Below are positions 13,820 through 32,000 of a DNA stretch of 32,000 nucleotides, piece after piece. Source of the stretch: Geotalea uraniireducens Rf4. Its GTDB lineage: Bacteria > Desulfobacterota > Desulfuromonadia > Geobacterales > Geobacteraceae. The position numbers and the translations under genes are program-made. The first letter of the stretch is position 1. Every line of letters starts with the position of its first letter. Below the pieces are notes generated by a model, which made no database searches, had not been told where the DNA came from, and was given only the letters and a program-made list of their open reading frames with translations. The stretch covers positions 3,600,001 to 3,632,000 of the forward strand of contig NC_009483.1 of the NCBI RefSeq assembly GCF_000016745.1. The letters run 5' to 3'.

Positions 13820-13914
13820 CGCAGACTAAAATGCAGGATGATCAGACATGGCTCCGCCGAGGTAATCATCCGGCACTTTAGCACCGTCTTCGAACAGCGG
13901 CAGAATGTGGGCGG

Positions 13915-15147: not shown

Positions 15148-15182
15148 ATTTTCCTCCATAATATAGAGTTACTTTTATAAAA

Positions 15183-18100
15183 TCAGGGCATTACCATCCA
15201 GTGACTCTCTTGGGCAAAGGGATATGACGGCAAGCTTATTCTCCGTGGCTTTTTGCCTTCGTACAGCTTGTTCCAGTCTATGACAGAGCCCTTAACCCAG
15301 AGGGCTGCCAGCTTTTCATAATTCCTACTACTCATCCACTTATGGACTGCTTCCTGCTCTTTTCCGTCGGCCGGCGTTGCTGATGGCATCTTGCTATGCT
15401 TTTTGGCTTGCCCAAAGAATATCCGGGCATTGTTATTTTCTCTGTTTAAATAGCAGGTGAGTTTCTCGATCGCCTCTTTATTCGTTTTTGCTGTGAATCC
15501 TAGCCTGCTTTTCATGGCCTCACGTCCTACCTGCAACGTATAGGCAACCTGCATTAGCCTTTCATCTCCAAACGTCTCTCCTTCGAGCCACTCTATCAAA
15601 TCCTTCACACGCTCGTTCAGCCTTTCCGCATTCTGCGCCGATACCACAAATATCGCCGGCGTACCCTCGCTCACATTGCACGAGTCGTCATCTTTGCCGA
15701 CAAACTCTGCTACAACAACATGCGCGTTCGACCCACCAGCTCCAAACGATGAAACTCCCGCGATTCTCGGAGCATCGCTTTTCCACTCAGTCAATTCCCT
15801 TTGCACGACAAAAGGGGTGTTCTCGAAATCAATATGAGGGTTCAAATTTTCCGCGAAGAGGCTTGGAACGATTTTGCCGTGTTTCATTTGCAATAATACT
15901 TTGGTCAAGGCTGCGATTCCGATCGCGCATTCGCAATGACCAATGTTTGAGTTTACGGATCCTATCGCACAAAATTGTTTGTCATCTGTGTGATGTTGAA
16001 ACGCTTTGGTCAATCCTGATATTTCAACCGGGTCGCCAAGAGGTGTCCCTGTCCCGTTGGCCTCGATATAGCTAATGGATCTTGCATTTACACCCGACCG
16101 TTCTATTGCCTCCCGAATGACTTGACCCTGGGACACGGGATTCGGCGCCATGAACGCATTCGTCCTGCCACCGTTATTGATCATACTGCCCTTGATAATT
16201 CCATATATGTTGTCGCCGTCATTGATAGCCTGAGCTAAAGGTTTAAGCAGAACCGCTCCGACCCCTTCACCTGTAACAAACCCATCTGCTTCTGCTCCAA
16301 AGGCACTGCAGCGATCTGTAGCTGAAAGGACACCCAGGGCTGAGAGTATCGTATAGTGATTGGGCGACAAAATCAGATTGACACCGCCTGCGATAGCGCG
16401 ATCGCAGGCACCGCTATGGAGGCTGTCGAGCGCCAAATGGACCGCTGTCAGTGAGGAGGAACTGGCGCTATTGACAACCATACTCGGACCTTGGAAATTA
16501 TAGGTGTACGAAACTCTATTTGCGATTACAAAGGGATGACTGCCCTTGAAATAGTCTGCGTTCATTACACCAACAAAGACCCCGATTTTTCGACTATCAC
16601 AGATGGTGTCCGGCGTGTAACCCGCATTTTCAATACAGCTATAGGTTTCCTGTAAAAACAGCCTCTCCTGAGGATCCATGATCTGTGCTTCACGGGGTGA
16701 TATATTGAAAAATTGATGATCGAATTTGTCTATATCTTCTAAAAATCCACCCCACTTGCTGTACATCTTTCCTGCTTTCCCTTTCTCCTTGTCAAAATAT
16801 TCCCTCCAATTCCAACGCTCCTGCGGTATCTCGGTTATGTTGGATTTACCTTCTTTCAGATTATTCCAGAATTCGTTTATATGGCTGGCACCAGGGTACC
16901 GAACGGATACCCCGATAATCGCTATATCAGCTGGTCCTTTTTTCTTCTCAATGTTTCCATTCAAGACTGGATCTAGGTTTTTCAACTGCACAGAAGATCC
17001 TACTTTCTGCAGTGTTGCGTTTAGTATCTTGGCTATCATCTCACCTGTTTCAGTCACTACTATCGCATCGAACGATATGTAATCCGATTTTTCAACGCGG
17101 ATTTTTTTAATGACATACGCTATCTCTGTAGTCGGTCTGTAGACCGTAATGCTGTCGATCGATAAGGGCACTTTAATTTCAGGATCAACGGTAACCGGAT
17201 CGGCCATGAGATAGCAACTATTTAACAAGAGGGGATCGAATACGAGGTTCTCACTGTTTCCCCTCTTCTGACTACCTGCCATAGTAATCTTTGCAACCAA
17301 TGTGACCTTGTCATACGCATACAAAGCTTCTATTGTCTTCAGCGTTTTTTCAATTTTTATGTCATGAATCATCTTGTATATTTTTTCGATGGTTCCTGGC
17401 GCAAACATTTTAGATTGGCTAACAATGGATTGAATCTCCAATCTCTCAGGGATGCTGTCAACCGTTCCAATAAAATCTCCCGCACAGTTCCTTTCTTTAT
17501 TACTTGTACCGAAAAGAGTTTCAAAACCGTTTACCCCTTTGGACTTCACTTCAACTTCAACGGTTTCATTTTTATTCAATCCTACAGGTCCGCCGTAAAA
17601 ACGGATATTTCTGAGGCCCAGCGGGTATCCTTCAGGATTGTTTTTCAAATAAGTTTCTATAGCAAGGCAGGGGTAAGTCACTCCCATGATCGCTGGGCGT
17701 GCATACACCTGGTGGTCCTGCAAAAAAGGTTCACTACCATAAAATTCATATTTATCCGAAGGAATTGTGAGCGTTCCGCTTTCAGTACTCCAGTTTTGAC
17801 TTTTCGTCCCACCTTCAGCCAGTTTTTTCTCCAGATAACCGGCCAAGGCAATGAAGTTACTATATTCAAACAACAGGCTGGGACTTAGCGACAGTTCAAA
17901 TTGTTCCTCTATATCTTTGACCAATTCCAAAAGCTGAGAAGATTCCATGCCCAATTCTAAGAAGCCCAGATTCTCAAGCTGATCCATGTTTGTATTTACA
18001 TATTTCGCGAAAATCTTCTTCAGCGGTTCCTCTACAGAGGGAAGGCTGGCATGCCTTACGTTTCCTCCGTCTTCATGGACTGGGGAACTGATGTTGTCAT

Positions 18101-18971
18101 CCCTTTCCGCCTGTTCCGCCTTTACCCGTTCAGGGTCTATTTGGCTCGGGTCTTTCACAAGTTTGATAGTCAGCCCGCTCAGTTTTGCGGTAAGATGGCC
18201 TCCCGTGTCAAAGAAGTCCATATCTACGGTAGTAATATCATTCACTGTGCGAATCGAGGATCTTTCGATTCTCACGTAACAACGGTCCAACAATGGTCCT
18301 TTACTGTAAAAAGTCTCATAAGATAAGGGGAGATATAGATCAGCTATACTGTCAGGCATCCCCTCTCTAATCAATATCATGGATGACATAGCCGCACCAT
18401 CCATTAAAGCGGGGTGAAACAGATAATTCTGTGCCGTATCTTGGTTCGCTAGATTTGCGTTTACATCTATTAAGCAGCCGCTATCAGTTATATAAACATT
18501 GCCTGTAGCCTTTATCATCCCCTGATGGACTAATCCGGCCTTGCGCGCTTCGGAATATGTTGTCTCCATGTCATAGGTTTTGGTAGAAAGCTGCTTCACA
18601 GCTTCTACGTCAATTACCTCTTCGAGGAAATCCACTTTCTTCTGCAATTCCGCCGTCACATATAGCATCCCTGCCTGCGATTCTTTGTGGATGTCGGTCT
18701 CCACACCTGCAACACTAATCTTCCAGTTTCTTTGCTTTCTTTCGAAAGTAATTTTCACGCGGACCGGTTTTTCTTTGCTCACCACCAGTGGTTTGTATAT
18801 GGCTAACCTTTTCAAGCAGTGATCATCACTACTTAGGTTTAACCCGTCTTTCGCCAATTGATACAACATATCAATGTATGCCAACCCTGGTAATACAGAG
18901 TGACCATATACCTGGTGGCTCTTCACTATCGGGTTATCTAAGGTCAACTGGAAGTTAAATATTTTTTTCAT
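15183..18971 (-). CDS. trans-AT polyketide synthase, DH-ACP-DH*-KS(Ser/Asn variant)-flanking subdomain
   Basis: The start ATG at 18969-18971 (MKKIFNFQLTL...) is preceded by GGGGAGAG and overlaps the upstream PKS gene by 17 nt. There is no AT domain. Domain motifs are listed under the sub-features. The stop is at 15183-15185. Confidence 0.9.
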   Translation of the reverse strand: MKKIFNFQLTLDNPIVKSHQVYGHSVLPGLAYIDMLYQLAKDGLNLSSDDHCLKRLAIYKPLVVSKEKPVRVKITFERKQRNWKISVAGVETDIHKESQAGMLYVTAELQKKVDFLEEVIDVEAVKQLSTKTYDMETTYSEARKAGLVHQGMIKATGNVYITDSGCLIDVNANLANQDTAQNYLFHPALMDGAAMSSMILIREGMPDSIADLYLPLSYETFYSKGPLLDRCYVRIERSSIRTVNDITTVDMDFFDTGGHLTAKLSGLTIKLVKDPSQIDPERVKAEQAERDDNISSPVHEDGGNVRHASLPSVEEPLKKIFAKYVNTNMDQLENLGFLELGMESSQLLELVKDIEEQFELSLSPSLLFEYSNFIALAGYLEKKLAEGGTKSQNWSTESGTLTIPSDKYEFYGSEPFLQDHQVYARPAIMGVTYPCLAIETYLKNNPEGYPLGLRNIRFYGGPVGLNKNETVEVEVKSKGVNGFETLFGTSNKERNCAGDFIGTVDSIPERLEIQSIVSQSKMFAPGTIEKIYKMIHDIKIEKTLKTIEALYAYDKVTLVAKITMAGSQKRGNSENLVFDPLLLNSCYLMADPVTVDPEIKVPLSIDSITVYRPTTEIAYVIKKIRVEKSDYISFDAIVVTETGEMIAKILNATLQKVGSSVQLKNLDPVLNGNIEKKKGPADIAIIGVSVRYPGASHINEFWNNLKEGKSNITEIPQERWNWREYFDKEKGKAGKMYSKWGGFLEDIDKFDHQFFNISPREAQIMDPQERLFLQETYSCIENAGYTPDTICDSRKIGVFVGVMNADYFKGSHPFVIANRVSYTYNFQGPSMVVNSASSSSLTAVHLALDSLHSGACDRAIAGGVNLILSPNHYTILSALGVLSATDRCSAFGAEADGFVTGEGVGAVLLKPLAQAINDGDNIYGIIKGSMINNGGRTNAFMAPNPVSQGQVIREAIERSGVNARSISYIEANGTGTPLGDPVEISGLTKAFQHHTDDKQFCAIGSVNSNIGHCECAIGIAALTKVLLQMKHGKIVPSLFAENLNPHIDFENTPFVVQRELTEWKSDAPRIAGVSSFGAGGSNAHVVVAEFVGKDDDSCNVSEGTPAIFVVSAQNAERLNERVKDLIEWLEGETFGDERLMQVAYTLQVGREAMKSRLGFTAKTNKEAIEKLTCYLNRENNNARIFFGQAKKHSKMPSATPADGKEQEAVHKWMSSRNYEKLAALWVKGSVIDWNKLYEGKKPRRISLPSYPFAQESHWMVMP
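15702..16931 (-). other. PKS domain: degenerate ketosynthase (Cys replaced by Ser and first His by Asn), followed by a flanking subdomain at 15186-15701
   Basis: ADIAIIGVSVRYP. SMVVNSASSSSLTA aligns with SMAVDTMCSSSLTA, giving Ser codon AGT at 16461-16463 in place of Cys. YIEANGTGT has Asn codon 16056-16058. NSNIGHCECA is retained. The flank ends SLPSYPFAQESHWMVMP-stop. Confidence 0.85.
16977..17765 (-). other. PKS domain: DH-like variant DH* (candidate enoyl-isomerase or pyran-synthase type)
   Basis: HQVYARPAIM keeps the His (codon 17712-17714), but Gly is replaced by Ala and Pro by Met relative to HxxxGxxxxP. The second motif reads FDPLLLNSCYL, with Asn (codon 17220-17222) where DH-a and DH1/2 have the catalytic Asp. 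Confidence 0.65.
17817..18041 (-). other. PKS domain: ACP4
   Basis: LGFLELGMESSQLLELV. Ser codon at 17940-17942 (GMES instead of the usual GxDS). Confidence 0.75.
18147..18971 (-). other. PKS domain: dehydratase DH-a at the N-terminus of the second PKS protein (approximate)
   Basis: HQVYGHSVLP matches HxxxGxxxxP (His codon 18915-18917). FHPALMDGAAM has the Asp present, with the usual Q/H position occupied by Met. Confidence 0.75.
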
Positions 18972-21900
18972 CAAACTCTCCCCAGACGTTTTTAACCGAA
19001 GACTGCACAGCTTCAAGATTTATCATCTGATTATCGATCGACTTAAACCTGTCAATGAAATCGTCTATACTGTCTTCGTTAGTCGACTTCACCAGTGAGT
19101 CTTGCTGAAACGTGACAGTTCGTGATGATGCAAAGCTACGTTTATTCATTGCCGGAGCTGCCAGAGAGAACAGCCGCTGGGTATAGTTCACTTCCGGAAC
19201 AAATTCTTCCATGATCACATGGCAGTTTGTACCTCCATCGGGGAATGAATTCTGAGCAGCAATGCGCTTACGCCCCGACTCTATTAGCCAGTCGGAACAT
19301 TCCCGATTGAAAGCTATACGGGACGCGGTGAAATCGTAATGCTCAAACGGCTCCAGCGCCGATAAAAACGGCGGTATCTTCTTCTCTTCAAGGCTGAGCA
19401 TGCACCGTATGAATCCGGCCAACCCTGAAGTCAGCAGAAGGTGTCCTATATTGGGCTTTATAGATCCCACTACGCATGACTTCATTTTTTTGTCATCCAA
19501 CCGGTATATTTCCGACAGCGCTCTGATTTCTATTGAATCTACCACAGGTGAGCCGCCGCCATTGACCTCGATATAACCTATGTCTTCCGGCGTCTTCCCG
19601 CTAAGCTCCAGGGCCTCTTTCATTACCTGCTTTTGAGTCTCCATGTTAGGCGAACCAGGACCCAATGTCCTTCCATCGTTGTTCACCGCTATCGCCTTGA
19701 TGACTCCATAAATCTTATTCCCGTCCCTTACTGCATCGCTTAACCTCTTCAATACGACTACGCCTGCTCCTTCTCCCAGTACTTCTCCACCTGCTTGCTT
19801 CTCAAATATTTTGAAATCTCCGTTTTTGCTCAGTATTTTTCTGGCCTCAAACAGTCGATGGGTAAATGGATTCAATATCAGGTTTACCGCACCCGCCATT
19901 GCCATATCTATCCGTCCGTTTTTCAAGGTATCCGATGCCATCGATATTGCCGTTAATCCTGACGAACACGCGGTGTCTACCACCAGGCTCGGACCGGTTA
20001 TATTTAGAAACCGAGAAATGTTGGTCGCTAGATAGTTCTGTCCCAGCCCCAATATCGGATTAGTGGCCTCCAGAACCTTTTCGATGTCCTGAGTTATCTG
20101 GGCACGCCCTCCTAGGTAAACTCCGACCCTTTGCCCGGAGACGTCCTTACTTTCATATCCAGCGTCATAAATCGCCTTCAGACCCTCTTCCAGTACCACC
20201 CTGGCTTGCGGATCCATGATCATCGCATCGTTTTCCTTCAGCTTAAAGAACTCCGGATCAAACATATCGATGTCATCGATCCAACCGCCATAATCCCTCC
20301 TGCCATTGCTTTCCCACCGGTTTTCCGGCACCTCACGGATCGCCTTCTCCCCCTTTGCCAGCAATTCCCAATAGGCCTCTTTGGTTGGTGAATCAGGGAA
20401 CCGGCAGGATATCCCGACGACCGCAATATCTTCCGGCGCCGTGACTATTTCATTGCGAGCAATTGGCTCATTTCCGCCAAGCCCCTCAAACGCCGGCTCT
20501 TTCATCTGAGCAGTGCTGTCTTCGCTAAGTGCAGCTTCCGCGGGAGTGCTCGCTGCGAGGTCAGCCTGGAACTGATCTGCGTGATGAGCACTGAAGTAAT
20601 CCGTCAAGGCTGCCAGGGTGGTATGCTCGAAAAGCAAGGCAGGATCCAATTTGCCCTGCACTCCTTTTTCGAGTGTCTGCACCAATTGGGCGAACATGAT
20701 CGAATCGATACCGTAGTCGTCAAAGGACGTGTCTTCATCCAGTTGATCTGCCGTCAGCTTCAATTCCGTCATGAATGTGTTTCGCAGCCACTGACGGACG
20801 GACTCCTTTACACCTGCTGTCAACCGGTGCGCTGGAGGCAATTGGGGCGCAGCAGAAACAGCGCGCGCGGGTTGCAGGTCAACCTTCAGCGTCGTTTTCA
20901 ACAACTGATCATGTCTGAATTCGTGAGGAATGACGACACAGGGCAAGGACACCCTGTAGGAACCATTTTTAATAACATCCAAGAGCATTAAGCCGTTTGC
21001 GGTTGAAACAAGGGCAAGGCCTGTCTTCTTATACGCCGGGGTTTGCTGTCCGTTTGCCGCCATGCCTGTTTCGCCCCAGGCAGGCCACTGAATCGACTTC
21101 ACATAGGCATGGCCGTGGCTGGCTTGATACTCGGCGAAATAGTCCATATAGGCATTGGCCATGGCATAGTCGCTTTGACTTGTGGATAAGGTAGGGGCGA
21201 CGCTTGATATGGACGAAAACAATATGAAAAACGCCAACGGCTCGGTTTCTACTACCTTGTGCAGGGTGGCAAGGCCGGTCATCTTGGGCTCGCACACCGA
21301 CTCGATCTCCGAGTAGGTTTTGTTGAAAAACACAGGTTTTTTGCCGGTGACACCCGCGCAGTGGAATATACCGGTGAGGGGGCCGGCATGCCGATGGATG
21401 TCGTCCACCATATCCCGTAACCCGTCCTGGTCCGTGAGTGGCGTGGTGTAATAGCGGACTCGCACTCCCTGCTCGACGAAGGATTGCATGCGCCGGAGTT
21501 TTTCAGACATTTCCGGCATGTCGTTCCGTTCAAGCACCGTTTTCCACTCGGATTGTTCCGGCAATGCTTCCCGGCCCAGAATGGCGAGGTTCCGGCAGCC
21601 CTGCGAAACGAGATGCTCAGCAATCGACGCACCTATCCCGCGCGATCCGCCGGTGATGAGAATGACGTCCACGGACCGATAGCGCTCCGTTTCTGGATAG
21701 TTCTTCTCAATGTCTACATCGGTCTGACCTATCCTTAATTGGGGTTCGTACCGCCTGTCGTTTCGATAACAACTCTCGGAAACATGCTCCTGGCAGGTAT
21801 TGGCAAATTCGTTTTTGATCTGCGCCGCCAGTTTCTCCTTCATTGCCAGCGGGCAATCACTATCCATCGTGAGAGAAAGGATTTGCTTGTACTCTGAGCC

Positions 21901-24900
21901 TAACATGCGGTACAGCCCGGCCAGACGAGCGCCTTGCAGGGTCGTCGTTGCTAGGTGAAAAGCGTGCAATGCATGTGTGACCTGTAAGAGCGTAAATCTT
22001 TCGCTCCGATCATACTCGATCAGCTTTTGCAGAAATGCTATTTTCCCGGACTCGACCGCAACAGATCGTTCATACTCGCTGTCATATGCGGTAAGGTCGA
22101 TTACGCCGAGCAGCTTCCGGTTAAGTCTCCGCTCCCTGATCTGGTGATACAGATCCTCCCCTGCCGAAGCCGAATAAAAATCAGTGGGTATCGCGTCGCT
22201 CGACGACAATGCGTCGTGAACAACATGGATTGCCCGAATGTCGGTTCTCTGGCTGAAGAGCTCGGCTGCAAGCTCCGCTGTTGCCGCGGTTCCCAAGACG
22301 ATTATCAGGCCGGAGGGAATATCCGACGCTGCGCCCGCATTCTTTTGCTGCCAGTCTTTAATCAGGATTACTCTTTCCCTTTGGCTGTCGGAGACCACAG
22401 CAGGGGCGACCCCTGCCACGGATGACTGGGCCATTTCCGGCACCCAATACCGTTCGCCGGCAAAAGGATAGGTGGGAAGGCCGATCCTGCGAGGCTTGGC
22501 AGCACCGTACAACCTGTTCCAGTCAAAATGCATCCCCTTGACCCAAAGCTCCAGAAGTCGTGCGTATTTTCCTTTGCTGACCCAGGCGTCGATCGTTTTT
22601 GCCATGTCCTCATCGACGGCGTAAAGCCATGCACTATCGTTGTCACGTTTAACGTTGCCCTTATAGAGGTCTTCGATGTCATTCGTGCCGTCCAGGAAGC
22701 CACTCAGTTTCTCTTCCAGCTCCTTGATCGACGCGACCACCAATGCCAACCGTGCATCCATGGCTTCTCGGCCGACCTGCAGCGTGTACGCCGCATCTGC
22801 CAGATCGGCATCGCTGAATTGCCGTTCCTGGATCGCCCCCAGCAATCGCCGCGCCTGCTCCTCAAGCCGCTTTTCATTCTTCGCCGACAATACGACGATC
22901 GCCGGATGCTGTGCGCTGACCCGGACCGGGATCCGCTCCCCTCCCTCAGGGATGTATTCTTCGATTACCACGTGAGCGTTGGAGCCCCCGGCCCCAAAGG
23001 ATGAAATACCGGCGATCCGCGGATATTCCCTGGTCTGGCCGTTAATCTCGACGACCGGACGCTTCCATTCGGCAAGTTGCTGTTGAACCACGAAAGGCGT
23101 GGTACTGAAATCTATGTTCGGGTTCAGCACTTCGGAATGTAGCGACGGAGCTAACTGGCGGTGCTTGAGCTGAAGCAGCACCTTCGTCACCCCAGCGATG
23201 CCCGCCGCGCTCTCGCAGTGCCCGATGTTGGACTTTGCCGAGCCGATGGAGCAGAACTGTTTTTCCTTGGTGTGTTCCTGGAAGGTCTTGGCCAAGCCCG
23301 CGATCTCTATCGGGTCTCCCAATGAGGTCCCCGTGCCGTGGGCTTCTATGTAGCTGATGGTCCGGGGATGTACCCCGGATTGCTGCAACGCCCGCCCGAT
23401 GACGCTTGCTTGCGCATTCGGGTTAGGGACCGTGTAACCGTTGGTCTTTCCGCCGTGATTAATCGTGGACGCCTTGATGACCCCGTAAATCTGATCTCCG
23501 TCGGCAACGGCTTTCGCCAGAGGTTTGAGCAGCACCGCTCCCACGCCTTCTCCTGGGACATAACCATCTCCGCCCTCGCCAAAACTCTCGCACCGCCCTT
23601 TGCTCGATACAAACTTGCCTTGGCCGAGAAACATGTACTTATTGGGATGGACCGAGACGTTCACCCCACCGGCGATCGCCACCTCGCAGCCGCCCCGTTG
23701 CAGGCTTTGACAAGCCAGATGGATGGCGGTCAGCGATGAAGAACACATGGTGTCCACTGCCATGCTGGGTCCATGGAAATTACAAAAATACGATACGCGG
23801 TTGGCTATCGACGAGGGGGAACCGGAAAGGGCGAGCGGCCTGCCCAAGGCTGTTTCCTGGGCCCCGTAGAGTTGGTACTCCTCGTACATTACGCCGACAT
23901 AGACGCCCACGTTACCGTCGAGGCCAGTCCCCAGAACTTCTCGCGTGTATCCTGCATTCTCCAGGGTTTCATACACGCACTGTAAGAATAGTCGCTCCTG
24001 CGGATCCAATATCTCGGCTTCACGCGGCGTGATATTGAAGAAAAGCGTGTCAAAGCGATCCACTCCATCCAGGAACCCTCCCCACTTGCTGTAGGTCTTT
24101 CCCTTCTTGTTCTTATCGGCGTCGAAGTACAGACTATGGTCCCAGCGCTCTTTGGGAATCTCGGTGATGCAATCCTTGCCGTCCCGGAGATTCTTCCAGA
24201 ACTCCCCGATATTTTCCGCGCCCGGATAGCGCCCGGAAACACCGATGATGGCAATATCTGACTCCTCGTTGGCTTTTTCCTCCTGCGATTCAGCGCGGCA
24301 GGCGAACCGCGCCTGCCTGCGGTTAAGGGCGGCCGTCTGCACGGATTTGGGCGCGGCAACGGAATTTTGGGAGGAATCGGCAGCAGTTGTGGGTTTCTGC
24401 TCTATTTCCAGCAATCCCATCAATTGATCACGGTGCGATTCAAGAAAGTACCCGGACAATGCCTGGATGGTCTGGTACTCGAAAAAGAGGGTTTTGGGCA
24501 ATGAACCGAATGCTTTTTCCAGCTGATTGGTCAATTGCATTACCATGATCGAGTCAATTCCGTACTTTTCCATCGGAGCATTGGCGTCGATCTTACTGGC
24601 AGGGTACTTGATGACGGAAGAGATCAGCTTCTTGAGATAGTCGGTGGCCTTTTCCTGAAGCAGATCCTGTGCAACTGCCGGAACTGTTTTTCCCTCCTCT
24701 GCGGCACAGCTTAACGTCGAGGTCTCGGTAGCGTCCTGTCGGTCCAAAAGCACGGCACGGAGTCGCTCGACATCCCCTTCCAGCGGCATGACCTGATCCC
24801 TGCCGCAGGCCAGGCACTGATACAAGGCCCTGATACCCGTCTGCGTCTGCAAGGAGATCATCCCCGTGCGTTGCAGCGACATGCTCTCGGTTTTCGCATC

Positions 24901-27900
24901 GATCCGCATGCCTCCCTCTTGCCAGAGCGGCCAATTGATCGAAAAGGTTCTGCCCAGGCGTTCGTTTCTGGCCACCAGGCCGTTGCGATATGCTGCATAG
25001 GCATCCATGAAGGCGTTCGCCGCAGCGTAGTCGGCCTGACCGATATTGCCGAGAAGTCCAGCTCCGGAGGAAAACAGTATGAAGAGATCCTGGTTTAGAT
25101 GCTTCGTTTCCTGATCCAGGTTCACCAGCCCCATGACTTTGGGTGCGAGGACTTCTAAGAGCTCTTCCTGTGTCTTTTTTATGATGAAGTTGTCACGGAC
25201 GACCCCGGCCGCATGGATAATGCCGGTGAGCGTCCCGAACTCCTTCATGATGTTTTGGATCAATTCGGCAACGGCTTCGCGCCGGGTGACATCGACCTCT
25301 TTATAGACGATCCTCGCGCCCGCTCCTTCCAGTTCCTTTAACCGGGATCGTCTCTCGTCGTTGAGGGAGGACCTACCGGTAAGAACGAGGGTCACGCTCC
25401 TGACCTTATGCGCGATCTCTCCGGCGAAAATCATTCCCAGTCCTCCGGCTCCGCCGGTAATAAGGTAAACGCCGCCTTCCTTCCAGGGAATGTTTTCTTC
25501 TGCGCCCGGTACTTCCAGTTCGCTCAGCCCGGCAACAAACCTTTTGCCATCACGATAGCGAATATGAGTAGCCAAGGGATCGTGGCTGTTCTGGTTCAGT
25601 TTCTCTACGATCGATTCCGAGGTTTCCCGTGCTTCCACTTCTATCAACTGCCCGATGAGCCTCGGATTCTCCATGCGGGCGGATTTGAGGAGGCCCAGGA
25701 GGCCCGTGAACAGAAGGCCTTCGGGGTCGGCAGGCAATACGACTTGGACCAGCACGCTCCCCCGGTGCTTTTCTCTCAGAATCCCTTGGAGTTCTGCGAA
25801 CAGCCGGGCTGCATGGTCCGTGAAGCGCTCCTCTATGCCTTTTTGCTCCGATTGCAGGGCAACGCAGCGTGTCCCGCTCATCTGGCTTGTGACGGCTTCC
25901 GGAATACCGTTTTCCAGCCCGCACAACAGCACCAGATGTGTCGCCAGATCGGGCGCCGTGGCTATTTCAGCAAGAGCCTGCTCGTTCCAGACCGGCTCAA
26001 GCATCAGGGTTCCTATGCTTGCAGAGGCGCCTACTGAAGGGACCTCTCCCTCCAGGCTGCGCAACGATAGCCCCTTGATCACAACCTGCACGTTGCCGTG
26101 TTCGTCGCATACCGTGATATCTATTTTTTGCACCGCATCGCCTGGCTTGCTCCCGTTGCCGTATCGAATCAATGCCCACATCGAGGAGCTGCACCTGCCG
26201 AGGATTTCCAGTTCCTGCAAGGCAAAGGGCAGGATCGGCTTGGACGGAGCGCTGCCAGAAGCTGCCTGGCTGCCGAATGAGTCCATGAGGCCAGCGCATG
26301 CCTGGAACGCGGAATCCATGATGCTGGGATGCAGAACGAACTGATCTACCGTTTGGCAGACTGAGGAAGGCAGGGACAGCTTGGCAAGCGCCTGGTTGGC
26401 ACCGACAAAGATGTGCTCAATGCCGCGATGTCCGCTGCCATACTCGATCCCCATGGCCCTGAATCCACCATAGCATTGGGCGGGCGTCAGGGTCCCTAGG
26501 TTACACGCGGCCCGTAAGGCGCTAATATCCAACGTTGATTTCCCCGAGGAAGGCAGAAGCTTTGCCTGCCCCTGGCTATGTACCACAGTGCCTGCCTCAG
26601 GTGACTCGCTGTAAACCTCATAGCCAATCTCCCCGTTGTCTTCAGGGAAAAGACCGATATGCACCTGAACCGGCCGGTCATTGACGATGATCGGTCTTGC
26701 CCACACGACATGTTTGAGGGAGATCCCCGTCAAAGCCTGCTTCAGGCCCCCCGCAGCCCGGTCCACCGCGGCCCGCGCCATCTCCAGATACGCCACCCCT
26801 GGGAACACCCTCTCGCCCCTGACTACGTGGTCGGAAAGGAAGAATTCCTGCCCGGTAAAGGTCGAACTGAATCTCTGCTCGGTTAGGTCCGAGGTGTTCT
26901 GATGCAGCAGGGGATGTAAGGCGTTGCCGCTTCCTGGTGCCCCCTGGCCTGCAGCGTCCAACCTCTGTCCTTTGATCTCGGGCAGCCAATAGCGCTCACC
27001 GGCAAAGGGATATGCGGGTAGACTGATCCGGCGAGGGGTGCTGTCGCCGTAGAGCACGTTCCAGTCAACGGGTATTCCCTGAACCCAAAGATCCAGAACT
27101 TTTGAGTATTTTCTTTTCCTGATCCATTTGCCGATAGCTTCCTGCATGTCATCGTCAGCAGTAAACACCGCCAACATATCGTTATCGCGCTTCACCTGAC
27201 CCATGGAGAGGCCTTCGATGTCATCCTTGCCGTTCAGATAATCCTTTAGCTTCTGTTCCAGTTCACTGACCGTTGCAACGATCAAAGCCATCCGCTCTTC
27301 CATTGCTTCCCGGCCGATTTGCAGGGTGTACGCCACATCCGCCAGGTCCGCATCGGTAAAACGCTGAGAGCTTTGCGCACCCAGCAAACGCTCAACGCTG
27401 GCACGCAGCCGCTCACCGTCCCGGGCCGACAGCACAATGAGCGCGGGATGCTGGGCGTTAATGGCAACGCGGGTACGCTCTTCGTCTCCAGGAGCATATT
27501 CCTCGAGTATCACATGGGCATTGGATCCTCCTGCTCCGAAGGAAGAAATCCCCGCTATCCTCGGATACTCACGGGTTTCCCCGTCAATCTCAACAACCGG
27601 ACGTACCCATTCGGACAGCTCTTGCTGAACGGTAAAGGGAGTCTTGGCGAAATCGATGTTCGGGTTCAGGTTCACCGAGTGCAGACTCGGCACGTGGGAG
27701 CGATGTTTCATCTGCAATACGATCTTGGTTACGCCTGCTATGCCTGCTGCTGCTTCCAGATGGCCGATATTGGACTTTACTGATCCAATAGCGCAGTATC
27801 CCGTGTCGGCGGTATCCTTGTGGAAGGCCTGTGCCAGCCCCGTTATCTCTATTGGGTCGCCCAGCTTGGTTCCTGTCCCATGAGCTTCTATATAACTGAC

Positions 27901-30900
27901 TGCCCGGGCATGTATCCCGGCTTTATCCAGTGTCTCCCGGATGAGTTCACCCTGGGCGACCGGGCTGGGAACGGTATATCCGTTGGTTTTGCCGCCATGA
28001 TTGGTTCTGCTGCCGCGGATAACGGCATGAATTTGGTCGCGATCGGCGATCGCCCGGGACAGAGGCTTCAGTAAGACGACGCCCACTCCTTCCCCCGGTA
28101 CAAATCCGTTGCCGTCCAGGCCGAAGCTTTTACACTGTCCGTCGGTGGAAAGCATCTGTAGGGCGCAAAGCTCGACATAGCTCGCCGGATGCAGATACAG
28201 ATTTACCCCGCCAGCGATCGCCATCTCGCATTCTTTGTGGTGCAGATGCTCACATGCCTCATGAATTGCAGTGAGCGAGGCGGAACACATGGTGTCGACC
28301 GCCATGCTCGGACCACGCAAGTTAAAGAGATAGGAAACTCGATTTGCAACCGAGCTAAATGAGGTGCGGGGGCTGATGGTTTCACCCTGCCTCCATAAGT
28401 CAGGGCCGTATAAAGCAAAACCATTCTTGGTAATTCCGGCAAAGACGCCGACCCGGCCCTTGAACTGTGCCGCAAGCTGCTCTCTTGTGTATCCGGCATC
28501 CTCGAACACTTCCCAGCAGGATTGAATAAACAACCGTTCCTGAGGGTCGGTATTTATGGCATCTAGGGCAGAAATATTGAAAAACAACGGATCGAAATCC
28601 GCAAATCCACGCACAAAGCCGCCCCATTTGCTGTAGCTTTTTCTCATTTCCACGGCTTCCTGAGGGTCTGCATGGTAAAATCCGTCCAGCGGCCAGCGGT
28701 CTTCGGGGATCTCTGTAATACAATCCCTGCCTGCTTTTAAATTCTCCCAATAATCGCCCAGGTTATCGGCCTGGGGATAACGACCGCTCATCCCGATGAT
28801 CGCGATAGGCTCTCGATTGCCATGGTTTTCCTGAGTTCCGCTGAAACTCCGCCTGGATGTTTTCGCTATTTTAAAGGACGTAAGGACAGGGAAATCACCA
28901 TCTTGATGCAGATCCTCTGCTGACGCCTTTTGTCCTGTCGGGATCGAATCTCGAAGTCCCGTCCATTGCAGGCACCGTTGTGGATAGCCGGTGATGAAAT
29001 ACGCCGCCAAGGCATCCAGATCTTGATACTCATAAAATAGGGTTTTTGACAGCTCGCCGAAAATTTTGGCAAGCTCCTGATTCAATTGGGTGATCATGAT
29101 CGAATCAATCCCATAGCTTTCCAGAGGCTCGTGCGCATCTATCCTATGGGCCGATAATTTTACAACCCTCCCCAACAGCACCTTGAGTTGATAGACGACT
29201 TTTTCTTTGAGCACTAGAGAATCAGCTTGCAGTATCAATTCGTCACCGGGAGAAGAAGGGAGTTCCGAGATAGTATCCAGCAACTGTTCCTGTATCCGGG
29301 CTCTATTACCATGCAACACTAAGGTCTGGTCGAACCCGGCGACTAAGCCAGTATGGAATGCCTGGATGCCGGCTAGGCTCGGCAAGGGTCTTAGGCCAAG
29401 TTTGTGCTGCATCATCTTCTCTGTCTCAGCGTCGACCTGCATGCCGCCTTCCCGCCAGAGCGGCCAGTTAATAGAGAGTGTTGCACCAAAACGCTCCCCT
29501 TTCTGAACCAGGGCGTTGCGCTGTGCGGCATAACAATCCATGAATGCGTTGGCCGTGGAGTAATCTGCCTGGCCTGGACTGCCGAAGGCGCCTGCAACAG
29601 AGGAAAACAAAACGAAAAAGTCCAGGCCAAGATCCTTGCTGGCGTAATCCAGGTTCACGAGTCCCGCGACTTTTGGGGACAGCACTTCGTGAAATTCTTC
29701 CACCGTCTTCTTGATGATGAAATTGTCTTTATTTACGCCGGCGCTATGAATTATCCCGTTGAGGTTCCCATGATCATCCACGATGGATTTAACCAACTGC
29801 TCGACCGAGTTCCTTTCAGTTACGTCCGTTTGCCGGTATTGGGCCCGCGCACCCAGGCTTTCCAGCTCTTGGAGTAGTGCCTGTTTCGCATCGCCGTGCG
29901 CGGACCTGCCGGTCAGGATGAGGGTGATGCCGTTTGCCTTCCGAGCCAGTTCTTTGGCAAAAATAAACCCTAAGCCGCCTGCTCCGCCGGTGATGAGATA
30001 GACGCCTTGCTCCTTCCACTGCATGCCCACGGAGGCCTGGGAGACCCCTATTTCCTTCCAGCGGACGACCTGCCGTTTCCCCTCCTCGTAGCGGACCCGA
30101 TCGTCGGCAGGACACCGGCTGTTGTATTTCAGCTTTTCTACTGTTTTGTCTGCATCTTCCGTCGAATCCACTGCGATCAGTTGGCCGGTCAGCTTGGGAT
30201 TCTCCTGGTGCGCTGTTTTTAGTACTCCATTGAGCGCGGCCAGAAGATTTCCCTCCCCATTATTGGGAATTACCATCTGAACCAGAACTTTGCCTTTAGG
30301 TTTCTCATTCAGCAGGCTCTGGATTTGTTCGAATACCTGCTGTGCATAGACCGGGAAGCGCTTTTCCATCTCCCGCTCTTCAGAGCTGATGATGAGGCTA
30401 CGAACTCCGTCCATTTGAACTTCAACTCCTTCTTTCAGGACATTGCTCATCTGGCAAAGGATGACCAGATGCCCGGCATACTCCGGCGCTCTGCCTTCCT
30501 TAACATCGGCCGGTGCCTCCCAGACCGGCTTAAGCACCAAGGTTTCTTGATCCGCCGCTGCGCCGACCGTGCCCTGCCCGCCTTCGAGTACCCGGAAAGA
30601 GAGTCCCCTCATACGGACGCAAACGCTCCCGTTCTCATCGCATAGATCGACATCAACGTTGTTAGCCCTGCCCGCGGCTTCGCCGCTGTTGCCGGACCGG
30701 ATCACTGCCCACATCAAAGAGGTGCAGCGCTGGAGAATTTCAAGCTGGTGCAGAGTAGACGGAACCATCGGTTTTGGCGCCGCCATGCTGGCAGGCTCTC
30801 CAACGATCAGGAGTGAGGCCTGCATTGCGGAATCGAGCATGCTGGGATGCAGAAGGTAATGATCCTCTGTTTCTGAAATCGAGGAAGGCAGCGAGAGTTT

Positions 30901-32000
30901 TGCAAGCACAGTAGTGGATCCTGCGTAGGCCCTCTCGATGCCTCGATGTCTCGCGCCGTACTCGCTTCCCATCGTTTTAAACGCATCGTAACACTGGGCA
31001 GAACTCAACTCCCGGTCGCACTCTGATTGCACGTCCAGGAGATTTATAACCGGAATATCCGCAACCGGACCGAACAGGGCACTGCCCTGGCTGTTGATAA
31101 TGGTCTCAGCGCTATGCTCTGTCGATTCGCTGTAAATCTCATAGCCAATCTCGCCGTTATCTTTGGGGAAAAGGCCGACATGCACCTGAACCGGTTGGCC
31201 GGTTACGGTAATCGGCCTTGCCCACACGATGTTTTTAAGGGAGATACCCTTCTGAGACGGGTTCCATGACCCCGCGGCCCGGTCCACTGCTGCCCGGGCC
31301 ATCTCCAAATAAGCCGCCACGGGAAGAATTTTCTCGCCGCTCACTGCGTGGTCCGCCAGGAAAAATTCCTCCCCGGTAAAGATCGAGCTGAACCTTTGCT
31401 CGGTCAGGTCCGAGGTGTTCTGGTGCAGCAGAGGGTGAATCGAATGTGCAACCGGCAGTAGCGCCGATGCGCCGGCGGTCTGGGCGATCTCCGGCACCCA
31501 ATACCGGTCTCCGGCAAAGGGATAGGTGGGAAGGCTGATCCTGTGAGGCTTGGCTGCACCGTACAACCTGTTCCAGTCAAAATTGAGTCCCTTGACCCAA
31601 AGATCCAGAAGGCGCGCGTACTTTCCTTTGCTGACCCAGGCGTCGATTGTTTTTGCCATGTCCTCATCGACGGCGTAAAGCCATGCACTGTCGTTATCCC
31701 TGTCCCGTTTAACATGCCCCTTATGAAGATGTTCAAGGTCACTCTTGCCATCCAGATACCCACTCAGTTTCTCTTCCAGGTCCTTGATGGACGCGACAAC
31801 CATTGCCAATCGTGCGTCCATGGCTTCACGGCCAACCTGCAGCGTGTACGCCGCATCTGCCAGATCGGCATCGCTGAATTGCCGTTCCTGGATCGCCCCC
31901 AGCAATCGCCGCGCCTGCTCCTCAAGCCGCTTTTCATTCTTCGCCGACAATACGACGATCGCCGGATGCTGTGCGCTGACCCGGACCGGGATCCGCTCCC
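18955..32000 (-). CDS. trans-AT polyketide megasynthase, 5'-partial: [KS-flank]-DH-KR-ACP-KS-DH-KR-ACP-KS-KR-ACP-KS0-tail
   Basis: One uninterrupted minus-strand frame runs from the window end to the stop at 18955-18957. The first in-window ATG (31950) lies inside a KS-flanking subdomain and the frame is open to nt 32000, so the true start is upstream. There are no embedded AT domains. Each KS is followed by a flanking subdomain of about 170 aa ending in PxYPFAGxRYW. Confidence 0.95.
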   Translation of the reverse strand, partial: ERIPVRVSAQHPAIVVLSAKNEKRLEEQARRLLGAIQERQFSDADLADAAYTLQVGREAMDARLAMVVASIKDLEEKLSGYLDGKSDLEHLHKGHVKRDRDNDSAWLYAVDEDMAKTIDAWVSKGKYARLLDLWVKGLNFDWNRLYGAAKPHRISLPTYPFAGDRYWVPEIAQTAGASALLPVAHSIHPLLHQNTSDLTEQRFSSIFTGEEFFLADHAVSGEKILPVAAYLEMARAAVDRAAGSWNPSQKGISLKNIVWARPITVTGQPVQVHVGLFPKDNGEIGYEIYSESTEHSAETIINSQGSALFGPVADIPVINLLDVQSECDRELSSAQCYDAFKTMGSEYGARHRGIERAYAGSTTVLAKLSLPSSISETEDHYLLHPSMLDSAMQASLLIVGEPASMAAPKPMVPSTLHQLEILQRCTSLMWAVIRSGNSGEAAGRANNVDVDLCDENGSVCVRMRGLSFRVLEGGQGTVGAAADQETLVLKPVWEAPADVKEGRAPEYAGHLVILCQMSNVLKEGVEVQMDGVRSLIISSEEREMEKRFPVYAQQVFEQIQSLLNEKPKGKVLVQMVIPNNGEGNLLAALNGVLKTAHQENPKLTGQLIAVDSTEDADKTVEKLKYNSRCPADDRVRYEEGKRQVVRWKEIGVSQASVGMQWKEQGVYLITGGAGGLGFIFAKELARKANGITLILTGRSAHGDAKQALLQELESLGARAQYRQTDVTERNSVEQLVKSIVDDHGNLNGIIHSAGVNKDNFIIKKTVEEFHEVLSPKVAGLVNLDYASKDLGLDFFVLFSSVAGAFGSPGQADYSTANAFMDCYAAQRNALVQKGERFGATLSINWPLWREGGMQVDAETEKMMQHKLGLRPLPSLAGIQAFHTGLVAGFDQTLVLHGNRARIQEQLLDTISELPSSPGDELILQADSLVLKEKVVYQLKVLLGRVVKLSAHRIDAHEPLESYGIDSIMITQLNQELAKIFGELSKTLFYEYQDLDALAAYFITGYPQRCLQWTGLRDSIPTGQKASAEDLHQDGDFPVLTSFKIAKTSRRSFSGTQENHGNREPIAIIGMSGRYPQADNLGDYWENLKAGRDCITEIPEDRWPLDGFYHADPQEAVEMRKSYSKWGGFVRGFADFDPLFFNISALDAINTDPQERLFIQSCWEVFEDAGYTREQLAAQFKGRVGVFAGITKNGFALYGPDLWRQGETISPRTSFSSVANRVSYLFNLRGPSMAVDTMCSASLTAIHEACEHLHHKECEMAIAGGVNLYLHPASYVELCALQMLSTDGQCKSFGLDGNGFVPGEGVGVVLLKPLSRAIADRDQIHAVIRGSRTNHGGKTNGYTVPSPVAQGELIRETLDKAGIHARAVSYIEAHGTGTKLGDPIEITGLAQAFHKDTADTGYCAIGSVKSNIGHLEAAAGIAGVTKIVLQMKHRSHVPSLHSVNLNPNIDFAKTPFTVQQELSEWVRPVVEIDGETREYPRIAGISSFGAGGSNAHVILEEYAPGDEERTRVAINAQHPALIVLSARDGERLRASVERLLGAQSSQRFTDADLADVAYTLQIGREAMEERMALIVATVSELEQKLKDYLNGKDDIEGLSMGQVKRDNDMLAVFTADDDMQEAIGKWIRKRKYSKVLDLWVQGIPVDWNVLYGDSTPRRISLPAYPFAGERYWLPEIKGQRLDAAGQGAPGSGNALHPLLHQNTSDLTEQRFSSTFTGQEFFLSDHVVRGERVFPGVAYLEMARAAVDRAAGGLKQALTGISLKHVVWARPIIVNDRPVQVHIGLFPEDNGEIGYEVYSESPEAGTVVHSQGQAKLLPSSGKSTLDISALRAACNLGTLTPAQCYGGFRAMGIEYGSGHRGIEHIFVGANQALAKLSLPSSVCQTVDQFVLHPSIMDSAFQACAGLMDSFGSQAASGSAPSKPILPFALQELEILGRCSSSMWALIRYGNGSKPGDAVQKIDITVCDEHGNVQVVIKGLSLRSLEGEVPSVGASASIGTLMLEPVWNEQALAEIATAPDLATHLVLLCGLENGIPEAVTSQMSGTRCVALQSEQKGIEERFTDHAARLFAELQGILREKHRGSVLVQVVLPADPEGLLFTGLLGLLKSARMENPRLIGQLIEVEARETSESIVEKLNQNSHDPLATHIRYRDGKRFVAGLSELEVPGAEENIPWKEGGVYLITGGAGGLGMIFAGEIAHKVRSVTLVLTGRSSLNDERRSRLKELEGAGARIVYKEVDVTRREAVAELIQNIMKEFGTLTGIIHAAGVVRDNFIIKKTQEELLEVLAPKVMGLVNLDQETKHLNQDLFILFSSGAGLLGNIGQADYAAANAFMDAYAAYRNGLVARNERLGRTFSINWPLWQEGGMRIDAKTESMSLQRTGMISLQTQTGIRALYQCLACGRDQVMPLEGDVERLRAVLLDRQDATETSTLSCAAEEGKTVPAVAQDLLQEKATDYLKKLISSVIKYPASKIDANAPMEKYGIDSIMVMQLTNQLEKAFGSLPKTLFFEYQTIQALSGYFLESHRDQLMGLLEIEQKPTTAADSSQNSVAAPKSVQTAALNRRQARFACRAESQEEKANEESDIAIIGVSGRYPGAENIGEFWKNLRDGKDCITEIPKERWDHSLYFDADKNKKGKTYSKWGGFLDGVDRFDTLFFNITPREAEILDPQERLFLQCVYETLENAGYTREVLGTGLDGNVGVYVGVMYEEYQLYGAQETALGRPLALSGSPSSIANRVSYFCNFHGPSMAVDTMCSSSLTAIHLACQSLQRGGCEVAIAGGVNVSVHPNKYMFLGQGKFVSSKGRCESFGEGGDGYVPGEGVGAVLLKPLAKAVADGDQIYGVIKASTINHGGKTNGYTVPNPNAQASVIGRALQQSGVHPRTISYIEAHGTGTSLGDPIEIAGLAKTFQEHTKEKQFCSIGSAKSNIGHCESAAGIAGVTKVLLQLKHRQLAPSLHSEVLNPNIDFSTTPFVVQQQLAEWKRPVVEINGQTREYPRIAGISSFGAGGSNAHVVIEEYIPEGGERIPVRVSAQHPAIVVLSAKNEKRLEEQARRLLGAIQERQFSDADLADAAYTLQVGREAMDARLALVVASIKELEEKLSGFLDGTNDIEDLYKGNVKRDNDSAWLYAVDEDMAKTIDAWVSKGKYARLLELWVKGMHFDWNRLYGAAKPRRIGLPTYPFAGERYWVPEMAQSSVAGVAPAVVSDSQRERVILIKDWQQKNAGAASDIPSGLIIVLGTAATAELAAELFSQRTDIRAIHVVHDALSSSDAIPTDFYSASAGEDLYHQIRERRLNRKLLGVIDLTAYDSEYERSVAVESGKIAFLQKLIEYDRSERFTLLQVTHALHAFHLATTTLQGARLAGLYRMLGSEYKQILSLTMDSDCPLAMKEKLAAQIKNEFANTCQEHVSESCYRNDRRYEPQLRIGQTDVDIEKNYPETERYRSVDVILITGGSRGIGASIAEHLVSQGCRNLAILGREALPEQSEWKTVLERNDMPEMSEKLRRMQSFVEQGVRVRYYTTPLTDQDGLRDMVDDIHRHAGPLTGIFHCAGVTGKKPVFFNKTYSEIESVCEPKMTGLATLHKVVETEPLAFFILFSSISSVAPTLSTSQSDYAMANAYMDYFAEYQASHGHAYVKSIQWPAWGETGMAANGQQTPAYKKTGLALVSTANGLMLLDVIKNGSYRVSLPCVVIPHEFRHDQLLKTTLKVDLQPARAVSAAPQLPPAHRLTAGVKESVRQWLRNTFMTELKLTADQLDEDTSFDDYGIDSIMFAQLVQTLEKGVQGKLDPALLFEHTTLAALTDYFSAHHADQFQADLAASTPAEAALSEDSTAQMKEPAFEGLGGNEPIARNEIVTAPEDIAVVGISCRFPDSPTKEAYWELLAKGEKAIREVPENRWESNGRRDYGGWIDDIDMFDPEFFKLKENDAMIMDPQARVVLEEGLKAIYDAGYESKDVSGQRVGVYLGGRAQITQDIEKVLEATNPILGLGQNYLATNISRFLNITGPSLVVDTACSSGLTAISMASDTLKNGRIDMAMAGAVNLILNPFTHRLFEARKILSKNGDFKIFEKQAGGEVLGEGAGVVVLKRLSDAVRDGNKIYGVIKAIAVNNDGRTLGPGSPNMETQKQVMKEALELSGKTPEDIGYIEVNGGGSPVVDSIEIRALSEIYRLDDKKMKSCVVGSIKPNIGHLLLTSGLAGFIRCMLSLEEKKIPPFLSALEPFEHYDFTASRIAFNRECSDWLIESGRKRIAAQNSFPDGGTNCHVIMEEFVPEVNYTQRLFSLAAPAMNKRSFASSRTVTFQQDSLVKSTNEDSIDDFIDRFKSIDNQMINLEAVQSSVKNVWGEFDEKNI
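19201..20433 (-). other. PKS domain: non-elongating ketosynthase KS0 (Cys kept, first His replaced by Asn)
   Basis: EDIAVVGISCRFP; VDTACSSG (Cys codon 19966-19968); YIEVNGGGS instead of EAHGTGT (Asn codon 19561-19563); KPNIGH retained. An 81-aa tail with no recognisable domain follows (18958-19200). Confidence 0.85.
20581..20817 (-). other. PKS domain: ACP3
   Basis: FDDYGIDSIMFAQL. Ser codon at 20701-20703. Confidence 0.85.
20911..22383 (-). other. PKS domain: ketoreductase KR3 including a long structural subdomain; no DH in this module (approximate)
   Basis: VILITGGSRGIG, HCAGVTGKKPVF (no Asp at the position where KR1 and KR2 have KDN/RDN), SQSDYAMANAYMD. Confidence 0.75.
22428..22940 (-). 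repeat. Intragenic repeat, copy A (KS2 C-terminus and flanking subdomain)
   Basis: It aligns with 31482-32000. Positions 22775-22940 are base-for-base identical to 31835-32000 (166 nt, offset 9,060). The remainder is roughly 85% identical by eye, with one 6-nt indel. Confidence 0.9.
22954..24258 (-). other. PKS domain: ketosynthase KS2 (elongation-competent triad)
   Basis: SDIAIIGVSGRYP; VDTMCSSS (Cys codon 23743-23745); YIEAHGTGT; KSNIGHCESAAG; ends NAHVVIEEY. Confidence 0.9.
24436..24669 (-). other. PKS domain: ACP2
   Basis: MEKYGIDSIMVMQL. Ser codon at 24550-24552. Confidence 0.85.
24766..25938 (-). other. PKS domain: ketoreductase KR2 including the structural subdomain (approximate)
   Basis: GVYLITGGAGGLG, HAAGVVRDNF, GQADYAAANAFMD. 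Confidence 0.8.
26047..26916 (-). other. PKS domain: dehydratase DH2 (approximate)
   Basis: HPLLHQNTSDL; HVVRGERVFP (His codon 26827-26829); LHPSIMDSAFQ. Confidence 0.8.
27496..28812 (-). other. PKS domain: ketosynthase KS1 (elongation-competent triad)
   Basis: EPIAIIGMSGRYP start; VDTMCSAS (Cys codon 28285-28287); YIEAHGTGT; KSNIGHLEAAAG; ends GGSNAHVILEEY. Confidence 0.9.
28987..29217 (-). other. PKS domain: ACP1
   Basis: LESYGIDSIMITQL. Phosphopantetheine Ser codon at 29101-29103. Confidence 0.85.
29296..30468 (-). other. PKS domain: ketoreductase KR1 including the structural subdomain (approximate)
   Basis: GVYLITGGAGGLG Rossmann motif, HSAGVNKDNF, and the catalytic Tyr in GQADYSTANAFMD. 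Confidence 0.8.
30586..31437 (-). other. PKS domain: dehydratase DH1 (approximate borders)
   Basis: HPLLHQNTSDL start; HAVSGEKILP matches HxxxGxxxxP (His codon 31348-31350); LHPSMLDSAMQ matches DxxxQ. Confidence 0.8.
31482..32000 (-). repeat. Intragenic repeat, copy B (flanking subdomain of the KS lying beyond the window end)
   Basis: See copy A. The identity is still perfect at the window edge, so the repeat probably extends further. Confidence 0.9.

Follow-up and report, generated by a model that had tools for sequence, protein, structure and literature searches.

Among the polyketide synthases (PKSs) described so far, the enacyloxin line has no thioesterase (TE), and its last subunit, Bamb_5919, ends in a non-elongating ketosynthase (KS0) whose Cys reportedly moves the chain to a stand-alone peptidyl carrier protein (PCP) before a condensation (C) domain esterifies it (dual-transacylation release). 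For ketosynthase (KS) domains that elongate, the DEBS KS1 variants C211A, H346A and K379A are each nearly inactive, Cys, His and Lys being essential for C–C bond formation (PMC7327777), and Ser in place of Cys is known from the polyene loading domains of KS-S type (NysA, RimA, AmphA and PimS0), to which a part as selectors or decarboxylases, and none in condensation, is ascribed (PMC4540446). Here we describe the KS at the end of the last-encoded PKS protein (ABQ27259.1 / WP_011939926.1; 3789 nt, 1262 aa; 15183..18971, minus strand) in a stretch of 32,000 nucleotides from Geotalea uraniireducens Rf4 (NC_009483.1, positions 3,600,001 to 3,632,000), hereafter the window, from the first letter of which all positions are counted. 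This terminal domain with Ser at the nucleophile position (Ser-KS) is real, uncommon among KS domains and clearly of elongating-KS descent, and it is more disarmed than it had seemed in the first-pass annotation, which was made from the letters of the window. Prediction tools and engineers sort the KS domains of trans-acyltransferase (trans-AT) lines as elongating or as Cys-dependent KS0, and the terminal Ser-KS fits neither class; for this orphan cluster the product is not predictable by simple colinearity at the last step. Our literature search returned no paper on the trans-AT PKS of G. uraniireducens, and the glutarimide-type PKS predicted in 'Geobacter' (PMC7930024) could not be linked to the present cluster.

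Active site of the terminal ketosynthase

The KS core takes up residues 681-1090 (15702..16931, minus strand), precisely the interval assigned to it at first pass, and is followed by a complete flanking (AT-docking) linker at residues 1091-1262 (15186..15701, minus strand) with matches to Pfam RhiE-like_linker, CurL-like_PKS_C and KAsynt_C_assoc. As expected for a KS of a trans-AT PKS, the profiles PF00109 (1e-83), PF02801 (1e-38), PF16197, PF22336 and PF22621 are matched, there is no cis AT, an AT gene lies next to the PKS gene, and among PDB entries the trans-AT KS domains 7ZMA, 4Z37 and 5ERB match best. The active-site position is occupied by Ser837, encoded by an AGT codon (16461..16463, minus strand) within the motif GPSMVVNSASSSSLTA, while all three other KS domains of the window carry Cys there (VDTMCSASL, VDTMCSSSL and VDTACSSGL); the D and T preceding the Cys are also exchanged, for N and S. 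The first catalytic His is replaced by Asn972 (codon 16056..16058, minus strand), the EAHGTGT of the window's two elongating KS domains reading EANGTGT (16044-16064) in the terminal one. Both of these substitutions had been noticed in the first-pass annotation and stand, but the exchange of D and T had been missed, and so had a third catalytic change: Asn1007 (15951..15953, minus strand) takes the place of the catalytic Lys of KSNIGH in the sequence SVNSNIGH. From the Cys-His-His triad and catalytic Lys of an elongating KS only the second His is thus kept, as His1012 (15936..15938, minus strand). The same correspondence, Ser on Cys and Asn on both His and Lys, appears in the alignment with the solved trans-AT KS 7ZMA, and each of the three replacements is a single-base, near-isosteric change.

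The substitutions are not artefacts of the deposited sequence. Two independent read assemblies (Logan; SRR9436596 and SRR9436595; L023 and L024) show 0 nucleotide differences over the 3789-nt gene, and neither gives TGT in place of AGT. An orthologue of 98% identity present on five metagenome contigs (L016-L020) retains the S/N/N set together with an unchanged downstream gene order, and the KS domain is free of stops and frameshifts in eight independent sequences. A sequencing error at the Ser codon is excluded by the two identical read assemblies and the five metagenome contigs with S/N/N.

To place the variant, the nucleophile position was compared across 909 full KS domains from all proteins gathered, aligned to one profile; in this convenience sample, which is not a census and was partly drawn from a 150-protein representative search ranking giant multi-KS proteins by summed score, 899 domains carry Cys. 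The ten Cys-less exceptions are the terminal protein and its near-identical copies (three), five N-terminal loading-type domains and two C-terminal domains (in P0328 and P0220); there is none among 736 internal KS domains, and independent Cys-less domains beyond the N-terminal ones number three. The five N-terminal domains, which belong to trans-AT-like megasynthases, have Ser (three) or His (two, in P0213 and P0268) in place of Cys and keep His-Lys-His. Earlier, a search for further Cys-to-Ser domains had been proposed: it did yield Ser variants (the three N-terminal ones and P0328) but no second relative with S/N/N, none being present among the 120 best hits of a KS-only protein search, where all domains have Cys except one N-terminal fragment. 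The three N-terminal Ser domains (SHKH) are compatible with decarboxylation, whereas the terminal Ser-KS lacks both His and Lys, and the polyene KS-S domains differ from it in belonging to cis-AT lines and in standing at the start of the line instead of the C-terminus. A loading decarboxylase of KS-S or KS-Q type was accordingly rejected as a candidate, given the C-terminal position and Asn in place of both the first His and Lys; decarboxylation of this type is excluded because His and Lys are gone.

With the KS0 domains of trans-AT lines the terminal Ser-KS shares the fold, the flanking linker, the loss of the HGTGT His and the position, often C-terminal in the subunit; Asn is a common replacement of this His in KS0, the pattern CNKH occurring 10 times in the survey. 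In contrast, Cys is kept in 70 of 70 ordinary KS0 domains, in agreement with what had been assumed at first pass, Lys is kept as well and an acceptor acyl carrier protein (ACP) comes next, whereas here Ser is encoded in eight independent sequences, Lys is replaced by Asn and no acceptor carrier follows in the window: the stop comes 4 residues after the linker, and beyond it lie the AT gene and a convergent MFS gene. The Ser-KS is also less degenerate than KS0. When 907 KS domains are taken together, 72 columns reach a conservation of at least 90%; from these it deviates at 4, all of them in the active site (T835S, C837S, H972N and K1007N), against medians of 2 for elongating KS and 11 for KS0. 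For 4 random hits in 72 columns, the hypergeometric probability of striking at least 3 of the four catalytic residues comes to about 2.7e-4.

Two further lines of trans-AT type, both unrelated to the Geotalea cluster, end in a Cys-less KS at the C-terminus of their last PKS gene. In the first (P0328; L057:8001-23156) the catalytic set reads S/G/K/H with 24/72 deviations and the flanking linker is lost; in the second (P0220; L058/L059:8001-27941) it reads D/Y/A/H with 21/72 deviations. All three terminal domains have lost Cys and the first His, but the replacement residues in P0328 and P0220 are other ones and both domains are far more degenerate than the Ser-KS. Beyond the last PKS gene of either line lie tailoring genes only: the gene for P0328 is followed by genes for an acyl-CoA dehydrogenase, a Rieske oxygenase and a glycosyltransferase, sugar-nucleotide genes, a methyltransferase and a MarR regulator, and that for P0220 directly by a KAS III-like gene, a free-standing ACP and a beta-branching cassette; no TE was seen in the 8 kb examined downstream of the former or in the flank examined downstream of the latter. 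A link between the B12 radical-SAM gene of the window and the one beside P0220 was considered and dropped, their 26% identity being family-level only. In three independent lines, then, absence of Cys goes together with the terminal position, but the three have no new active site in common; the pattern seems to merit a systematic survey.

Ancestry and evolutionary signature

Proteins with the same layout as the terminal one, comprising dehydratase (DH), ACP, a second DH-like domain and KS (P0002-P0014; 40-54% identity), all have Cys and His in their KS. In the terminal protein the DH occupies residues 1-290 (18102..18971, minus strand; Pfam PKS_DH_N / PS-DH; motifs HQVYGHSVLP and LMDGAAM) and the ACP residues 326-400 (17772..17996, minus strand; Pfam PP-binding), after which no further carrier domain of the line comes into view. 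Between ACP and KS, at residues 411-680 (16932..17741, minus strand; Pfam PS-DH), lies a DH-like domain of enoyl-isomerase (EI) type, the sole PDB match of which is 4U3V, the bacillaene PksR enoyl-isomerase; both keep the His and carry Asn where a DH has Asp (DPLLLNS in the terminal protein). The N-terminal DH is the second half of a split KS0/DH-ACP dehydrating bimodule, the first half of which is closed by an ordinary KS0 at the C-terminus of the upstream PKS mega-ORF (19219..20445, minus strand), with Cys kept and the motif EVNGGGS.

The complete cassette is met elsewhere in a line that goes on. On the metagenome contig L021, KR-ACP-KS0/DH-ACP-DH-KS (KR, ketoreductase) is followed by DH-KR-ACP-KS-DH-KR-ACP-KS and more, and on L022 the cassette is present twice and the line likewise continues. 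The KS0 of L021, a contig from one metagenome with L016, is 85% identical to the KS0 of the window, and DNA identity is 75% over 2.9 kb, from KS0 up to where the enoyl-isomerase begins. Between the terminal KS itself and its closest elongating counterparts, identity is 60-66%. The closest Cys-containing homologue (P0003, on L021) stops in the first DH motif (HPLLHENISDL..., L021:13800-14520) and the next PKS gene begins with a DH 560 bp further on, perhaps because a frameshift or insertion, or a break in the assembly, interrupts what may be one gene. From the layout of the cassette, the enoyl-isomerase match and the onward modules of the homologues, the cassette is therefore a dehydrating bimodule with double-bond shift, and the Ser-KS descends from an elongating KS that normally carries the shifted chain onward, the onward modules being missing here. 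The elongating KS in the cassettes of P0002-P0005 (with 7ZMA and 4Z37 as structural counterparts, and 4U3V for the isomerase) holds the same place as the Ser-KS, but its catalytic set is Cys/His/Lys/His and the chain passes to further modules, against Ser/Asn/Asn/His with nothing after it.

The domains on either side of the Ser-KS are as close to these homologues as the homologues are to one another: distance ratios of the first DH, ACP, EI and linker to P0002-5 and P0007 are 0.92-0.99, with no excess divergence. For the KS alone identity to the same proteins falls to 62.5%, versus 74.8% among the homologues (distance ratio 1.49). Unique changes are seen in the terminal KS at twelve positions which do not vary among its 15 nearest elongating relatives, compared with 2-7 such changes in each of those, and they concentrate in the active-site loops, as in GGKTNGYTVPNP -> GGRTNAFMAPNP. 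The earlier statement that the domain is well preserved and not drifting therefore holds in one respect, as there is no decay (4/72 deviations and, against the 98% relative, one non-synonymous change), but not in the other, since the KS is 1.5-fold more diverged than its neighbour domains and altered at 12 otherwise invariant positions.

The comparison with the 98% relative gives 1 non-synonymous and 3 synonymous changes in the KS core (omega 0.09), versus 29.5 and 18.5, respectively, in the rest of the terminal protein (omega 0.42), and non-synonymous changes are depleted in the core relative to the rest (Fisher p = 2e-4). Other values of omega in this pair are 0.01 for KS2, 0.15 for KS0 and 0.18 for AT, and the linker, with 10 non-synonymous changes in 172 codons, reaches 0.5. 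Synonymous divergence (dS) between the two populations (18955-23817 versus L016:1-4863) is itself uneven, being 0.12-0.14 in KS2 and KS0, 0.02-0.03 in the KR-ACP region and AT, and 0.011 in the Ser-KS, which points to mosaic recombination between them. The whole pattern shows an earlier burst of change centred on the catalytic site, followed by present constraint on the fold; since the events are few and dS is low, the selection signal is moderate evidence only.

Possible roles of a disarmed terminal domain

What the domain can no longer do is easier to define than its present role. Condensation is excluded, because Cys, His and Lys are all lost and the corresponding single mutants of DEBS KS1 are nearly inactive; Cys-dependent transfer of KS0 or enacyloxin kind is excluded because Ser stands at the Cys position. 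As the most likely reading, though with barely more conviction than doubt, we take the terminal KS for a condensation-dead pseudo-ketosynthase which is kept as a structural cap and represents the remnant of a shortened line. Of the four catalytic residues three are gone while the 72 columns hold a single further change, omega is about 0.09 (few events) and the frame is intact in every copy, as would be expected of a pseudo-enzyme. The stronger degeneration of P0328 and P0220 and their other replacement residues fit a loss of catalysis with the fold kept, and not a shared new catalytic site. Among the three roles put forward at first pass, namely a scaffold, an oxyester-forming off-loading transacylase and a partner for a downstream protein, the scaffold fits best.

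The ancestor is the elongating KS of a KR-ACP-KS0/DH-ACP-EI-KS cassette; under the structural-cap reading, shortening of the Geotalea line, in which the downstream modules are absent, left this KS without anything to extend onto. Exchange of Cys, the first His and Lys removes acyl capture, malonyl decarboxylation and C–C bond formation, while the KS fold and its flanking linker are intact and appear to be under purifying selection. The dimeric KS-linker body may hold the last subunit (DH-ACP-EI) together and in register, and loss of Cys may keep a dead-end KS from capturing the finished chain; this chain would then have to leave the last ACP through another activity, outside the visible window. 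Shortening of trans-AT PKSs is common and can leave functional synthases (transPACT study, PMC7930024). If the cap is real, trans-AT subunits need the KS-linker body even where no chemistry is left to it, which bears both on safe cut sites in engineering and on the natural shortening described in that study.

Several observations weigh against this reading. The surroundings of the active site are better preserved than in KS0 domains which do transacylate (4 versus a median of 11 deviations), and a purely structural domain need not keep the active-site architecture so intact. The nucleophile position has Ser and not Ala or Gly, and with the second His also retained, Ser-His chemistry is conceivable. 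The purifying-selection signal comes from one pairwise comparison with few events, in which the dS of KS is low (0.011). Finally, the cluster extends past 32000, and the "end of the line" is defined here as the end of the gene row together with the lack of a docking tail.

The latter has been assessed on 33 proteins ending shortly after a KS-linker, by counting the residues after the YPF..W motif. The linker of the terminal protein terminates in LPSYPFAQESHW, and only 4 residues (MVMP) separate the motif from the stop, leaving no docking tail; this is the shortest end of the 33, the others having 8-79 residues, many with helical docking-type sequence. The earlier claim that neither ACP nor TE follows the terminal KS holds within the window, with the same reservation about the cluster running past 32000.

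The well-kept active-site surroundings, Ser at the nucleophile position and the retained second His are the features on which a repurposed off-loading catalyst would be built. Ser837, activated by His1012, would take the finished chain as an oxyester and pass it to water or another nucleophile, a role that we consider unlikely. It would account for the choice of Ser over Ala or Gly, for the retained second His and for a conserved core nearly untouched at 4/72 deviations, better than in typical KS0; a burst of change in the active-site loops followed by strong constraint is also the pattern expected of a function shift, no TE is visible downstream, and the unrelated P0328 line likewise ends in a Ser-KS without a TE in the next 8 kb. 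Nevertheless, the three Cys-less terminal domains have no common active-site set (S/N/N/H, S/G/K/H and D/Y/A/H), and a TE may sit in the part of the cluster upstream of the window. We know of no thiolase-fold KS that uses Ser as acyl acceptor in a modular PKS. Enacyloxin release reportedly needs the Cys of KS0, a stand-alone PCP and a C domain. The terminal Ser-KS shares with Bamb_5919 the C-terminal position in the last subunit, but it has Ser in place of Cys; on the visible 3' side there is no TE, the cluster itself continuing past 32000, and no stand-alone carrier or condensation enzyme is encoded between 1 and 15159. The off-loading of enacyloxin type proposed at first pass thus finds no support in the visible flank and is at odds with the key residue. 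The Ser-for-Cys loading domains of polyene synthases, moreover, count as selectors or decarboxylases that do not condense (PMC4540446). The wider version of the catalytic idea, in which a Ser837/His1012 dyad serves as a KS-derived substitute for TE and Cys-less terminal KS domains form a small unrecognised class of TE-less termination modules, seems to us quite improbable. Were the domain catalytic, it would represent a new route of polyketide release.

The KS-linker might instead act as a non-catalytic adaptor, recruiting a releasing enzyme (TE, acyl hydrolase or condensation enzyme) or a PKS subunit, or docking the adjacent trans-AT; to this we likewise give little credence. The flanking linker subdomain is complete, the trans-AT gene starts 23 nt downstream and has an unexplained C-terminal extension of 130 aa, the cluster continues past 32000, and trans-AT clusters often depart from a colinear arrangement of their genes (PMC7930024, methods), which would allow a partner to be encoded elsewhere. 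The missing docking tail, however, with 4 residues only, sets the protein apart from other KS-linker-ending proteins and weakens the notion of a downstream partner, and a Cys-less KS cannot pass the chain to a next module. No carrier protein, condensation enzyme or hydrolase is encoded in the 13 kb downstream (1-15159), and the linker is fast-evolving in comparison with the 98% relative (omega 0.5), the opposite of a conserved interface.

That the KS is a neutral relic decaying in a non-producing cluster, its line truncated by recombination in a genomic island, is very doubtful: the integrases, the truncated AbiE toxin-antitoxin pair and the transposase remnants beside the cluster, the adjacent outer-membrane efflux gene broken by two frameshifts, the step in GC content from 0.42-0.49 (terminal gene and AT) to 0.54-0.57 upstream, indicating mosaic origin, and the accelerated KS lineage would all suit such a history, but the PKS frame is intact over more than 17 kb in Rf4, as are the same genes in a population that differs by about 2%, the omega values of KS2, KS0 and AT lie at 0.01-0.18 and that of the Ser-KS at 0.09, the substitutions of the latter are specific to catalytic positions instead of being spread over the conserved ones, and its eight independent sequences contain neither stops nor frameshifts.

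Gene order and mosaic structure of the locus

The PKS genes occupy the minus strand and end at 13915, their start lying past 32000. The upstream mega-ORF (18955..32000, minus strand; more than 4331 aa) continues past the edge of the window and has the domain order linker-DH-KR-ACP-KS-linker-DH-KR-ACP-KS-linker-KR-ACP-KS0; its stop is overlapped over 17 nt by the terminal PKS gene with its ATG. The trans-acting malonyl acyltransferase that follows the terminal gene (ABQ27258; 13915..15159, minus strand) scores above the FabD equivalog cut-off, and its 130-residue C-terminal extension (13918-14307, minus strand) has 0 Pfam matches even at E = 5. Convergent with it is the gene of an MFS transporter (ABQ27257), which forms an efflux operon with HlyD (ABQ27256) and an outer-membrane factor whose gene is broken; further on are a B12 radical-SAM gene (ABQ27255) and genomic-island remnants.

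GC content changes in steps within the PKS, from 0.42-0.49 in AT and the terminal gene through 0.50 in KS0 to 0.54-0.57 in the upstream modules, which suggests that the terminal cassette and AT were derived from a lower-GC donor via recombination (13915-20445 versus 20446-32000). Inside the mega-ORF, KS-linker segments two modules apart (22414-22934 and 31468-31994) have 90-91% DNA identity, with a weaker third copy at 26956-27476, and these repeats indicate recent module duplication or gene conversion. Near-identity of these segments is probably the reason why all metagenome contigs break within the mega-ORF: the contigs with exact protein matches end 0.25-4.8 kb upstream of the terminal gene. 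Scanning genome contigs for an extension of the mega-ORF beyond 32000 gave relatives at no more than 43% identity, the matches of a protein search with the upstream ORF stayed at or below 55% identity, none of the proteins exceeding about 2100 aa, and the metagenome-contig scan for the upstream cluster reached 53% identity at best.

The outer-membrane factor of the HlyD-MFS efflux system (TolC/OEP family; 9929-11243, plus strand) is spread over three reading frames, with at least 2 frameshifts. GenBank numbers pass straight from ABQ27255 to ABQ27256, so the OEP gene presumably has pseudogene status there; the sole OEP call in the 98% relative is an ORF of 213 aa. No tRNA gene occurs in the window. 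The island remnants (1797-6252, plus strand) comprise a tyrosine integrase with Arm DNA-binding domain, an AbiEi antitoxin, a second integrase, an AbiEii toxin covering profile positions 79-229 only, and a fragment (156 aa) of an AEP-type primase domain.

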